NCBI GenBank assembly: GCA_951406725.2
Contig: OX597830.1
Span: forward strand, 75,578,001 to 75,642,000
DNA: 64,000 bases
Direction of reading: 5' to 3'
Source of the DNA: Octopus vulgaris
Lineage: Eukaryota
Shown here: piece after piece, positions 6,390-36,000 of the stretch
How the letters are laid out: each line of letters opens with the position of its first letter
Position numbering within the stretch: the stretch's first letter is position 1
The notes under the pieces: generated by a model
What the model saw: only the letters and a program-made list of their open reading frames with translations
Told to the model about the DNA's origin: nothing
Database searches by the model: none
Translations under genes and position numbers: made by a program

Positions 6390-7135
6390 GGCGGCGAGCT
6401 GGCAGAAACGTTAGCACGTCGGGCGAAATGCTAACCAGTATTTCGCCTGTCTTTACGTTCTGAGTTCAAATTCCGCCGAGGTTGACTTTACCTTTCATTC
6501 TTTCGTGGTGGATTAAATATGTACCAGTTACGAACTGGGGTCGATATAATCGACTTAATCCATTTGTCTGTCCTTGTTTGTCTCCTCTCTATTTAGCCCC
6601 TTGTGGGTGGTAAAGAAATAGGTATTTCGTCTTACGTTCTGAGTTCAAATTCCGCCGAGGTTGACTTTACCTTTCATTCTTTCGTGGTGGATTAAATATG
6701 TACCAGTTACGAACTGGGGTCGATATAATCAACTTAATCCGTTTGTTTGTCCTTGCTTGTCCCCTCTGTGTTTAGCCCCTTGTGGGCAGTAAAGAAATAG
6801 GTATTTCGCCTGCCACTACGTTCTGAGTTCAAATTCCACCGAGGTTGACTTTGCCTTTCATCCTTTCAGGGTCGATTAAATAAGTACCAGTTACGCACTG
6901 GGGTCGATATAATCAACTTAATCCATTTGTCTGTCCTTGTTTGTCCCCTCTGTCTGGGCAGTAAAGAAATAAGTATTTCGCCTGTCTTTACGTTCTGAGT
7001 GCAAATTCCGCCGAGGTTGACTTTGCCTTTCATTTTTTGGTGGTCGATAAATTAAGTACCATTTGCGTACTGGGATCGATCTAATCGTTTAGCTCTTTCC
7101 CCAAAAATCTCGTACATTGTGCCTAGAGTAGAAAA
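6390..7135 (+). mobile_element. SINE family B with one head and four tandem body units
   Basis: Head 'ggcggcgagctggcagaaacgttagcac'. The unit 'tacgttctgagttcaaattccgccgaggttgacttt...gtaccagttacg...aaagaaatagg' recurs about every 170-185 bp. Flanking direct repeat taatatttagtcc at 6369-6381 and 7136-7148. Confidence 0.85.
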
Positions 7136-8659: not shown

Positions 8660-9899
8660 AACAGCATGAACGATGTGCGACATTGTTGTTGCAAAGAAGG
8701 TGAAATTAACAGTAAAGCAAAATTCGCTCGAAAATTTGGCTGATAGGTGGGAACAAAAGCTTTTACATGGCAAATATGTGGCCTGTAGCAAACAAGCTGA
8801 TGTAGATTATTGATATTATTTACATTTCACGGATATTTGTTCTCATCTTGTTTGTTGTTAACACAACGTTTCCGCTGATATACCCTCCAGCCTTCATATC
8901 AGCGGAAACGTTGTGTTAACAAGAAACAAGATGTGGACAAATATCCGTCAAATGTAAATAATATAAATAATTCCGCATCTCTTCAATATAGAACTGTAAA
9001 CTGATGTAGACCAGAAGCACAAATATCAGTGGCTACGGAGCTCAGGTCTACAGGCAGAGAGTGAAGGCTTTACCTTGGCTGCCCAAGAACAGAGATTATT
9101 GATCCGGAACTATAAAGCTAGTGTGATGAAAAATGGTGTAGACCCAAAGTGCCGATACTGCAACGAGGAAATCGAAACAGTCTACCACCTAATCTCTGGA
9201 TGTAAGGTTTTAGCACCTACAGAATACAAATCAAGACACGACAGAGTTGGCCAATATCTACATGTTCGGCATCATTTAATCAAAACTGCTGACAAATGGT
9301 ACAAGCACCACCCCGAAGTTGTAACTGAAGGAGAAAATGTAACAATTCTTTCTGACATCCCAGGATGTTCAGATCGAGCCATCAAGGAAAATAAACCAGA
9401 TATTGTTGTGAAAGACAAAAATAATCTCTGTTTCTTGATTGACATGAGCAAATACTGTGACCATAATATCTCGGCAAAAAAATTTGATAAGCTCAGAAAA
9501 TATAAAGATCTGCCAATCGAAAACGAAAAGATTAGGCATCACAAGACGGTTACAATACCAATGATTGTAGGAGCACTTGGAATGTTAAAAACATGAGCTG
9601 AAATTATTTAAGAATGATCCTTGGCTTACCATCCATGCATGAAGTGCAAAAGATTGTCTTAACTCGTGCGTTTCTTTCCTCCTCACTCCCTTATTTTATT
9701 TGTTTACTTTTCAATCCTTTATTTTTCCTTTTTCTCTCTGTCTTCCCCCGTTTCTCTATTTCATGACTCTTTAAATAAACAATCTGATATGCTTCTTTTA
9801 GTGACCAACCAATGTCTAGAGGTACGTTTCGCCTCCCTAGTTGTCAGGAAGACACTCGGCAAGAAATGGACATAGAATTGAAAGGAGATGCTAATGAAA

Positions 9900-9900
<1 letters not shown>
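8660..9900 (+). mobile_element. Decayed R4/Dong-clade non-LTR retrotransposon, 3' part (CCHC knuckle, restriction-like endonuclease, 3' UTR)
   Basis: RWEQKLLHGKY...WLRSSGLQAESEG..LAAQEQ..CRYCNEEIETVYHLISGC..RHDRVG..KPDIVVKD..LIDM..KLRKYKDL..IVGALG. Interrupted by an insertion at 8807-9000 and ends at (TAA)n. Confidence 0.88.
8807..9000. mobile_element. Fold-back insertion (69-bp arms) with a 10-bp flanking duplication; Penelope-like terminal repeat derivative
   Basis: 8813-8881 and 8896-8964 are inverted with a 14-nt loop. 'ctgatgtaga' is duplicated at 8797-8806 and 9001-9010. The minus strand reads atga-aggctg..cagcg-gaaac-gtt, a partial hammerhead. Confidence 0.75.
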
Positions 9901-10991
<1,091 letters not shown>

Positions 10992-18604: not shown

Positions 18605-18710
18605 GATCAGCCGATGATCTTGCAAAAAGCAAAGTCGTTAGTTCTTAAACCTGTATAAGACACACACAGACACAGGCACAGACAGACAGACACACACACA
18701 CATACACACA

Positions 18711-18744
<34 letters not shown>

Positions 18745-18820
18745 TATGCGTGTGCGTGTGTGGATCTTATAGAGATTTTAGAACTAGCAACTTTGCATGT
18801 TGCAAGATGAGCGGGTGAAT
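18605..18820. repeat. Imperfect ~55-bp inverted repeat flanking a (CA)n tract (MITE-like)
   Basis: 'atcagccgatgatcttgcaaaaagcaaagtcgttagttcttaaacctgtataaga' versus 'tcttatagagattttagaactagcaactttgcatgttgcaagatgagcgggtgaat'. Confidence 0.7.
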
Positions 18821-18852
18821 CTAGCTTATTATTCTATATATTGCGAACTAGC

Positions 18853-18913
18853 GGACGAGTGTTAGGTACTGAAGAAGGGAAAATACCCTGAAACCATAGT
18901 GGTCTACTTGTCC
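18853..18913 (+). ncRNA. Type I hammerhead ribozyme (complete core, GUC cleavage triplet)
   Basis: ggta-CTGAAGA(18869-75)-AGGG[aaaata]CCCT-GAAA(18890-93)-CCA[tag]TGG-TC(18904)-tact; distal helix I ggacg/tgtcc. Confidence 0.8.
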
Positions 18914-19649
18914 TATCAAATCGGTAGATGGTAGGGATTCGCTCCCCTGCTCGCAGTATATTGGACACAGGCTGTGTCATTAAACAGCTTGAGGTGTTCT
19001 CCTGGGATTAAAAAGTAGTAACGTAGTTCCATACAGAGCAGCCACATTGAAGTAGCAATAAACATGTGTGTGTAAATAAAAAATTGTGGCACAACAAGGC
19101 ACCAATGTTTGCTGGAAATAGCAGTCGATAACCGTACGACGCTATGTAAAGCGTCACTGAATCCATACAGGCAAAGATGTGAGCGGGCGGAGAACATAAA
19201 AAACGTTCGTCTTACCTCAAGGAAGAACAATCTAGAATGAATAACCTAGTATTCAAATTTCAAACTTTCAAAAATACGTTTGTTATCGTAAATTATGCCA
19301 GTGATCTTCAGCTAGATTCACTGAAGACGGATTTTTAAAATATCAGCAACATTAATGCCAGTATATTCGGCCATAAACAGGACCGAGATTAGTGGAAAAA
19401 AGCTTTATAGAAAATTATATCATTGTATTGCATTAATATTTATAATTTGTGTGTGTGTGTATGTGTGTGTGTGTAATAGTGCCTGCCGTAGACGTGGAGC
19501 TGTATATGTGTATTTGTCGTTGCAATCAACAACACCCTCACACTTCAAATACTTATCGTTTTCACTCCTATTTTAGTTGTAGCTGATCTCCGGCAATTTA
19601 TATACCTACATGCCCTCACAAACCACCAGCTACCTCTTCGATGTCGTCG

Positions 19650-19703: not shown

Positions 19704-20460
19704 CCTTCTTCTTCTTCTTCTTCTTTTTCTTCATCTTTTTCTTTTTCTTCTTCTATTACTACTTCTTTCTTTTCTTCTTCTCCTTCGTCCTTCTCCATCA
19801 CCTTCTATCTCCTCCTCCTCCACCTTATTTTCTTCTCCTCCACCTCCTCTTCTTCCTCCTTCTCCACGTTCTTATTCCTCCTCCTTCACCTTCTTATTCC
19901 TCCTCCTCCGCCTTCTTTTTCTTCTTCTTCTACTTCTACTTCTTCTTCTTTTTCATTTTCTTCTCCTTCTTCTTTTTCTTCTTCTTCTTCTCCTTAATCT
20001 TCTTATCATTATTATTATTTTTCTTCTTCGTCCTCCTCCTCCTTCACCTTATCCTTCCTCCTCCTCTTTCACCTTCTTTTCTTCTTCTCCGCCTCCTCTT
20101 CTTCTTCTTCATCGTCCCCACCGACCTTCTTATTTCTCCTCCTCCGCATTTTTCTTCTTCTTCTTCTTCTTCTTCTTCTCCTTCTTCTTTTTCTTCTTCT
20201 TCTTCTCCTTAATCTTCTTATCATTATTATTATTTTTCTTCTTCGTCCTCCTCCTCCTTCACCTTATCCTTCCTCCTCCTCTTTCACCTTCTTTTCTTCT
20301 TCTCCGCCTCCTCTTCTTCTTCTTCATCGTCCCCACCGACCTTCTTATTTCTCCTCCTCCGCATTTTTCTTCTTCTTCTTCTTCTTCTTCTTCTTCTTCT
20401 TCTTCTTCTTCTTCTTCGGCGTCTTCTTCCTCTACGTCCTTCTTACCTCCTTCTTCATCC
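19650..20460. repeat. Pyrimidine-rich (CTT)/(CCT) block containing a 215-bp tandem duplication
   Basis: 'ccttaatcttcttatcatt...ccccaccgaccttcttatttctcctcctccgc' at 19992 and again at 20207. Confidence 0.9.
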
Positions 20461-34240: not shown

Positions 34241-34639
34241 TAATTACACACGTGGGGTGTTTTGGGGTTTTTTTTTCTTTCTCTAGACTTTCACACAAAT
34301 GCCAGTTTAATTTAATTCGTCCTTAATCCTGTTATTTGCATTTGTTGTTGTTAATGTCCTGTTATTTGCATTTGTATTTGTGTACCATTTCTCTGTATTT
34401 TTTCCGTCCTTGTCTTCATATACATTCACTGCTTTCTTCAAAGGTGTCTAGTGCTTTCAGCATAGTTTTTCTTTGAGGCTAGCTAGATTGGAGCAATCAC
34501 GAGTACAAGCAGCCGAAATTGCAAAGATAATCAAGAATTCGACTGAGGAAAATAAACTCCGAATTACCTGTCTTTGTTTTTTCTTTTCCCTTTTTGCATC
34601 GTATAACTGTCTGGATGTTTGCGCTCCTGTCCCAATTCT

Positions 34640-34686
<47 letters not shown>

Positions 34687-34731
34687 ATGTATGTATATAT
34701 ATATATATATATATATACATATGTATGTATG

Positions 34732-34778
<47 letters not shown>

Positions 34779-34826
34779 GTATATATATATATGTATATTT
34801 ATATATATGTACATATATATATATAT

Positions 34827-36000
34827 GGTGTCTCTGGAAAGTTACTGAAATGGATCAAGTGTTTCCTAACAGACAGATCTCAATATGTTGTAGTTGAAGG
34901 GGTAAAATCAAGCCCAGCCAAAGTCAGTAGTGGCGTTCCGCAAGGCATTGTGCTGGGCCCACTTCTTTTCATCATTTACATTAATGACATTAATGACATC
35001 ATCAAGCACAGCAACATAAAAATCTTTGCAGATGACTCCAAGCTACAAAAGGTCATAAATGAGGCGAGTGACCGGACATGCTTTCAGTCAGATCTACTGG
35101 CTGTTATCCAATGGGCAGAAAAAACAATATGCTGCTGAACGAGGATAAATTTGAGCTAATCCACTTTGGAAAAGAGGATGCCCTGAAACTCCCATACTCC
35201 CTGCCTTCAGGTGAAACTCTCGCGGCGTCCAACAACATCAGAGACTTGGGAGTAACTGTGGACAACAACATAAGCTGGGCCACTCATATAAACACCAAAG
35301 TTGACATGGCCCGCAGAATGTGTTCCTGGATTCTCAGAACTTTCCAGTCGAGAGATATCCACACCATTATCCTTCTCTTCTCCACTTTTGCCCGACCCCA
35401 CCTTGAATACTGTTGTCCACTGTGGTCTCCCCACACAATACAAGGTATCATAAAAGTTGAAGCACCTCAAAGGGCAATCACAAAAAAGATAGATGGCATG
35501 AGAGGCCTCGACTATTGGGGTCGACTAGAAAAGCTAAAACTCTATTCTCTCCAACGTCGTCGTGAGCGCTACATCATCTGCATGATGTGGAAAATATTCC
35601 ATCAGCATTGCCCAAATGATGTTGGCATCACCTTTAAGGTACATCCAAGGCTTGGGCCCCGTGCCATCCGCCCAAAACAAAAATCGCACTCTCATCTCAT
35701 AACAACAATACGGCACAATTATTTCACCTCAATTGGCCCCGCTCTCTTTAACATTACACCAAAACACATTAAAACAGAAACTGACCCTATAGGGTTCAAG
35801 AAGTCTTTGGACAGATTCCTTCAAGAAACCCCGGATAAACCCCTACACCCGGATATGTCTCTGTAAACAATAACTCTCTACTTGAGTGGGCCATAGTGCC
35901 CAAATTCTGACTTGAAAGACTTCACCAGGTGGTGCTATTAAGTTAGACATGGCCTGGGCCAATAATGGCCGAAACCTATCAAAGTATCAAAGTATCAAAG
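34827..36000 (+). mobile_element. 5'-truncated CR1-group LINE (RT C-terminal half plus 3' UTR) in TA-rich microsatellite
   Basis: [56 protein letters not shown]. Two single-base frameshifts, a 3' stem-loop ggcca-ataa-tggcc and an (AAAGTATC)n tail. Confidence 0.93.

Follow-up and report, generated by a model that had tools for sequence, protein, structure and literature searches.

A type I hammerhead motif in Octopus vulgaris is one copy of an old, scattered repeat family of about 355 nt

The hammerhead motif and its surroundings

The window analysed here is a stretch of 64,000 nt from Octopus vulgaris (assembly GCA_951406725.2, contig OX597830.1, positions 75,578,001 to 75,642,000 of the forward strand), and all coordinates given below refer to it unless stated otherwise. 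It consists of microsatellite-rich eukaryotic DNA. A Pfam search for host genes among 85 of the 93 most complex open reading frames (ORFs) of at least 70 codons, in which short exons would be missed, returned only fragments of LINE-type reverse transcriptases (RT). These lie at 9000-10823 and 34452-35863 on the plus strand (zf-RVT twice, RVT_1). At 6438-7086 we found 3.6 tandem copies of a 179-nt unit, presumably a common SINE-type repeat, and at 19939-20417 there are 2.2 copies of a 215-nt CTT-rich block with 98% identity, which represent either a recent local duplication or an assembly artefact. At 1581 (plus strand) of the window and at two other loci (L024 and L071), CUGANGA...GAAAYGU occurs as a short motif with a small helix II; possibly these are minimal Penelope-type hammerheads of another common repeat.

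A type I hammerhead had been proposed for positions 18853-18913 of the plus strand in the initial annotation. Re-reading of the sequence bore out this call: the core is complete, all three helices are present, and no other site on either strand of the 64 kb matched our hammerhead descriptor. The core had been placed exactly, with CUGANGA (C3-A9, here CUGAAGA) at 18869-18875, GAAA (G12-A15.1) at 18890-18893 and the GUC triplet at 18902-18904. Helices II and III had likewise been drawn correctly. Helix II (18876-18889) pairs AGGG 18876-18879 with CCCU 18886-18889 around the loop AAAAUA, sibling copies carrying mostly (C)AAAUA, and has an A-U pair at its base, where hammerheads prefer G-C. Helix III and the triplet occupy 18894-18904, with CCA 18894-18896 and UGG 18900-18902 enclosing the loop UAG, which is mostly GRC in the siblings. 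By the established hammerhead consensus, cleavage would be expected after 18904. For helix I, the annotated register (ggua/uacu plus ggacg/ugucc) is possible, but the family alignment described below gives another one. Here, the proximal helix is formed by 18863-18868 and 18905-18910 (6/6 paired, three of them G-U), a UGU bulge at 18860-18862 faces the unpaired U 18911, and the distal helix joins 18854-18859 to 18912-18917, with four of six pairs left and two mismatches; the 3' strand of helix I thus covers 18905-18917. On the model of the Schistosoma mansoni Sm-alpha hammerhead, the UGU bulge would be the likely partner of loop 2. Of the elements of this putative contact, AAAUA and UGU are kept in the window copy, and the distal helix closing the bulge is the one with the two mismatches.

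With 6 bp in helix I, 4 bp in helix II and 3 bp in helix III, helices II and III being closed by loops and helix I open, the motif is not a chance match. Among 150 windows simulated with an order-3 Markov model, none contained a motif with helices of at least 4/4/3 bp and seven did so at the looser setting of 3/3/1; a separate run at 5/4/3 gave one in 150. A comparison with Rfam yielded no hammerhead match at this site, either at the gathering score or at E≤10. This miss says nothing about the window copy, because better-preserved siblings and loci of the second family introduced below went unmatched too: four loci with well-preserved motifs of either kind gave 0 hammerhead rows among 113 weak matches.

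The ribozyme lies in the main arm of a repeat (18765-19065, plus strand), which corresponds to unit positions 1-326 and ends at the first of two fixed 3' ends of its family. An inverted short arm at 18607-18660 (minus strand, unit positions 1-54) stands head to head with it and lacks the ribozyme; over 72 nt the two arms share 79% identity. At the inversion junction, sequence and repeat scan identify a (CA)n/(GT)n microsatellite at 18660-18764. The earlier statement that the window holds no second copy is right for the ribozyme, which is single and not in tandem, but not for the repeat, of which the 54-nt inverted arm is a further piece and the genome holds many copies.

Directly downstream, at 19073-19400 on the minus strand and tail to tail with the first, lies a copy of a second, unrelated hammerhead repeat. 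Its ribozyme remnant (19243-19318) is broken in the window. A genome search with this repeat gave at least 60 matches (best 40 of 978 candidates scored), and a joint between copies suggests a period of about 296 nt; this family likewise shows inverted arms and partial tandems. The hammerhead of its siblings is of the dimer-cutting amphibian type, with a 7-bp helix I and a structured helix II insert of about 35 nt; its helix III consists of a single pair closed by a palindromic UCGA loop, and its cut triplet is GUA. GAAACUCGAG was counted by eye in 9 of 36 rows of this repeat, some rows being duplicated.

A dispersed family and its insertion footprint

Searches of the 2.8-Gb assembly revealed many copies of the first repeat on many contigs. 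With 18770-19070 as query we obtained at least 51 matches of 69-84% identity (best 40 of 463 candidates scored), and with the full unit of a reference copy (L005), to which the main arm is 73% identical, at least 76; among the best 40 of 2,186 candidates scored in the latter search, no long non-self match exceeded 87%. A 31-nt piece of the unit with up to two mismatches matched the genome 222 times (12, 60 and 150 matches at 0, 1 and 2 mismatches), its reversed control not at all. These counts fit an estimate of about 1,350 segments diverged by some 13-14% from the family majority, a figure that ignores indels and subfamilies. The core pattern occurs at 22 places in the genome with 21 distinct sequences, family membership of all 22 being judged by eye.

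Copies of the unit are circular permutations of one another with a period of about 355 nt: what lies behind the matched stretch in some of them stands in front of it in other ones. The unit has a majority length of 356 nt, one type I hammerhead and a GC content of 44%, and the ORF over it has no Pfam match; in these respects it agrees with non-LTR retrozymes, which are non-coding repeats of 150-450 bp with one such ribozyme each. The window motif is therefore one copy of an old, scattered, non-coding family of repeats of about 355 nt carrying a type I hammerhead, and its main arm differs from the family majority at 36 of 300 positions (about 12%). Judged from sequence divergence, the family is old, with no sign of a young burst. 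All four DNA read sets compared, labelled with four other organisms, contained contigs matching the family. In two of them, near-identical contigs of the window copy were present among the matches listed (2 differences in 185 nt and 6 in 222 nt); this insertion therefore predates those splits. No RNA data set was among the 24 runs listed as carrying the sequence, which speaks neither for nor against transcription. In the main texts of the openly accessible papers listed on hammerheads, retrozymes and Penelope elements of octopus and cephalopods, we found no description of the family.

For the insertion footprint, we removed duplicates by hand from an initial 79 loci and mapped the remaining 59 distinct ones onto the unit. 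This gave 103 pieces, a sample which was found with pieces of the unit and is biased towards long, well-kept copies. In the sense of the ribozyme, 3' ends fall at unit positions 321-340 (36/103) and 21-40 (34/103), about 57 nt apart on the circle, so that 70 of 103 pieces end in 2 of 18 bins, while the 5' ends scatter over 16 bins. Both orientations are present at 30 of the 59 loci, mostly head to head. Thirty of the 103 pieces exceed one unit, the longest measuring 614-616 nt (about 1.7 units), and four span the cut site (after unit position 161) twice; whole-unit arrays of at least two units were absent from the 103 pieces at the 59 loci (best 40 candidates per search). Tracts of (TA)n or (CA)n are frequent next to the 3' ends. 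Taken together, 5' truncation, partial tandems, inverted arms and a tail make up the footprint of a Penelope-like insertion with a unit of retrozyme size. The suggestion of the initial annotation that the motif is part of a retrozyme or Penelope-like family is supported by this footprint, by the dispersal of the family and by the hammerhead in its alignment. Since the ends of copies lie far from the cut site, which a single copy may traverse twice, we infer that the template would have been a circle or an uncut multimer and not the cut linear monomer. The first fixed 3' end (unit position about 320-335, window 19055-19065) follows an AC-rich run; this recalls the AC-rich stem-loop at which the anole Penelope enzyme starts reverse transcription according to PMC11167929, and is a resemblance only.

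The constant 3' ends, the scatter of the 5' ends and the microsatellite flanks would be compatible with LINE-type priming too, and fragments of LINE RTs are present in the window. It is nevertheless hardly conceivable that we are dealing with an ordinary LINE-mobilised SINE in which the hammerhead is a mere passenger. Neither a fixed 5' end nor an A-tail was seen in the mapped copies, and the permuted and over-length copies already largely refute the proposal: circular permutation, over-length copies, two alternative 3' ends and frequent inverted arms, here at half of the loci, are not traits of SINEs.

Penelope-like element (PLE) machinery is present in this genome. At one locus (L077), pieces of the unit lie about 350 bp upstream of a frame with RT and GIY-YIG (L077:3972-6298). 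It is part of a young PLE family, for which we obtained at least 112 matches of 93-100% identity on many contigs, many of them with open frames of at least 776 codons. The unit is absent from 29/29 other loci of this young family (reach about 1.5 kb past the ORF) and from the 3' region of L080, and the canonical hammerhead core pattern occurs in none of the 29 within about 1.5 kb past the ORF. The L077 ORF was consequently rejected as the autonomous parent, since its family is young and the unit occurs neither at the other 29 loci nor in the 3' region of the family itself; we interpret the adjacency as the result of two insertions that hit a single (TA)n tract. The 3' region of the young PLE family is long and microsatellite-rich. 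PLE-like frames (open frames of at least 130 codons, judged by eye) stand beside the unit at 1 of 79 loci. The window locus has no ORF with RT and GIY-YIG, and an autonomous partner of the 355-nt family was not found.

These data also bear on the idea that the unit is the 3'-terminal pseudo-LTR (pLTR) of an autonomous PLE that has since died out, the copies being heavily 5'-truncated insertions of it. The insertion footprint would be the same, 10.64898/2026.07.22.740005 describes pLTRs as carrying hammerheads and Xenopus retrozymes as matching pLTRs, and at L077 the unit does lie upstream of a PLE ORF. However, the 30 pieces that extend 5' past one unit enter another copy of the unit and not an ORF, and the only PLE frame found beside the unit is that of the young family without it. 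Moreover, the ribozyme has the canonical architecture (tertiary loops and a helix III of 3 bp) that PMC7229834 assigns to retrozymes, as opposed to the minimal hammerheads of PLEs. We consider this origin improbable.

Decay of the ribozyme and predicted folding of the window copy

The majority of 30 aligned copies is a textbook type I hammerhead. Its proximal helix I reads CCAGUA/UACUGG, followed by the UGU bulge opposite U and the distal helix GACAGG/CCUGUC, and helix III is CCA/UGG. Loop 2 is (C)AAAUA, which we take to be of the kind found in the Sm-alpha hammerhead. In these 30 copies the 19 pairs hold in 86.9% of the cells, as opposed to 24-42% in slid controls. Covariation did not exceed that of shuffles, of which 215, 347, 185, 409 and 153 of 500 reached the observed values. 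High pairing without covariation is expected from independent decay of one structured ancestor; as such decay breaks some pair in most rows, it also accounts for the lack of any predicted pair when RNAalifold was applied to the 30-copy alignment. Relative to the majority, 44 other copies diverge by 10.4% in the core, 13.3% in the remaining ribozyme and 12.7% in the rest of the unit, and all 12 core bases are kept in 10 of 43 other covering copies. As far as sequence divergence can tell, the family decays neutrally, without sign of selection.

In the window copy all 12 core positions equal the family majority. Its intact core is unremarkable, because 10 of 43 siblings share it and because the copy was picked for being intact. 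Outside the core, 10 of 51 ribozyme positions (20%) are changed, compared with 26 of 237 (11%) in the rest of the unit; the copy has diverged as far as its siblings have, and the earlier option of a retained host element finds no support. We nonetheless considered that the host might have kept a working ribozyme here, for example one cutting an intron or a non-coding transcript that runs through the locus. Apart from the complete core, helices II, III and proximal I are fully paired, the latter 6/6 despite four substitutions, one of them a two-sided change from C-G to A-U, and near-identical contigs exist in two other organisms. Drift, however, predicts an intact core in about one fifth of the copies, and the ribozyme outside the core is changed more than the rest of the unit. 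Two mismatches disrupt the distal helix I, the predicted misfolding described below is the worst among comparable copies, and the copies of the two relatives differ by no more than 1-3%, too little for selection to become visible. Retention by the host is thus very unlikely, and we would be equally surprised by a domesticated retrozyme, i.e. a working hammerhead with its helix I rebuilt by compensating changes, which cuts a transcript of the locus in several related species.

The initial annotation had considered the ribozyme possibly active and had named one alternative fold as evidence against this. Precisely this fold, with ggacgagug paired to the 3' strand of helix I, is the predicted minimum-energy structure, which weakens the case for activity. 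In 18853-18913, positions 18853-18861 are predicted to pair with 18905-18913, and C3-U4-G5 of the core with the changed loop 3. Forcing the catalytic fold costs 9.0 kcal/mol in contexts of 61-76 nt and 4.5 kcal/mol in contexts of 160-301 nt, but when the 5' side is trimmed to the proximal helix I, it lies only 0.2-0.3 kcal/mol above the minimum. Among 21 core-bearing rows (one of another family), 14 have a broken helix pair and seven retain all ten tested pairs; the predicted penalties of these seven are 0.1, 1.2, 2.2, 4.2, 5.0 and 7.9 kcal/mol and, as the worst, the 9.0 kcal/mol of the window copy. For the family majority, a circle is predicted to fold with -128.9 kcal/mol (z -6.0 versus 60 shuffles) and 65% paired positions, and its catalytic fold to lie 0.8 kcal/mol above the minimum. 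All these energies ignore Mg2+ and tertiary contacts. For this reason, and in view of the sibling penalties of 0.1-7.9 kcal/mol and the small penalty of the trimmed core, slow cleavage of the window copy is conceivable; that it would cleave detectably in vitro in its native context appears somewhat doubtful to us. On these predictions we regard the copy as misfolding and, probably, as a dead fossil. Shorter than a unit and equipped with a single ribozyme, the insertion cannot release a monomer circle.

Proposed history and relation to known systems

We favour, with a probability of roughly 0.8, the explanation that the repeats form an old hammerhead family of about 355 nt, which likely was a non-LTR retrozyme and relied on the enzyme of a Penelope-like element for its copying, and that the window holds a copy of less than unit length, about 12% diverged, predicted to misfold and probably a dead fossil. 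According to this proposal, the ancestral unit would have given rise to multimeric transcripts that were cut by their own hammerheads and closed into circles of about 355 nt. A Penelope-type RT/GIY-YIG protein would have nicked AT-rich or microsatellite DNA, and reverse transcription would have begun at one of two fixed internal sites about 57 nt apart (unit position about 330 or about 35), running for a variable distance and sometimes more than once round the circle. Priming may often have occurred from both DNA strands, giving rise to inverted arms. At the window locus, one arm, which includes the ribozyme, would have reached a length of 326 nt and the other one of 54 nt. The copy would then have drifted, its 12 core bases surviving by chance, and the competing fold would have arisen through changes in loop 3 and in the distal part of helix I.

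The window element is a real hammerhead in a fossil copy of an already known class (retrozyme/Penelope-related). As a single copy it matters little, since decayed retrozyme monomers are to be expected wherever the class occurs. The family adds an old layer to the record, with two unrelated, diverged hammerhead repeats standing tail to tail. Its two-site Penelope priming footprint lends support to the proposal that Penelope-like enzymes move animal retrozymes and, being found on an old family, suggests that such movement has been long-running in this lineage. There is also a caution for ribozyme calls based on motifs: a drift of about 13% leaves a perfect core in about one fifth of the copies.

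Retrozyme units of mussel, coral and axolotl occur as circular RNAs, and PLEs have been proposed as their movers (Cervera and de la Peña 2020, PMC7229834). The unit sizes given in this paper are 350-390 bp in mussel, 220-240 bp in coral and 330/350 bp in axolotl, and canonical hammerheads are assigned there to retrozymes and minimal forms to PLEs. The octopus family resembles these metazoan non-LTR retrozymes in its non-coding unit of about 355 nt, GC content of 44%, canonical type I hammerhead, predicted self-paired circle and the presence of PLEs in the genome. It differs from them in that it is old, dispersed in pieces of 0.1-1.7 units with no whole-unit arrays found in our sample, and represented in the window by a single ribozyme. 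Retrozymes have further been linked to pLTRs, and solo monomers, which are spread over chromosomes, are counted as members of retrozyme families (Li, Clavereau and Pollet 2026, 10.64898/2026.07.22.740005); in the same work cleavage was observed for only one of nine predicted elements.

PLE insertions are described with 5' truncation, partial tandems, an inverted 5' copy and a tail of 30-40 bp (PMC8557442; see also PMC4209133), and two internal RT start sites define this tail (PMC11167929). Like PLE pLTRs, the octopus repeats combine 5' truncation and partial tandems with an inverted 5' arm, two fixed 3' ends and AT-rich or microsatellite targets, and the hammerhead precedes the 3' end in the sense direction. 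Unlike PLE pLTRs, the unit has no attached ORF and its hammerhead is canonical instead of minimal; its tail measures about 57 nt, compared with the 30-40 bp in the PLE papers (PMC8557442, PMC11167929). With the Schistosoma mansoni Sm-alpha hammerhead the ribozyme shares the type I topology, as defined in PMC6155905, and an internally looped helix I; the window copy departs from it by its A-U pair at the base of helix II, its loop AAAAUA and its two distal helix I mismatches.
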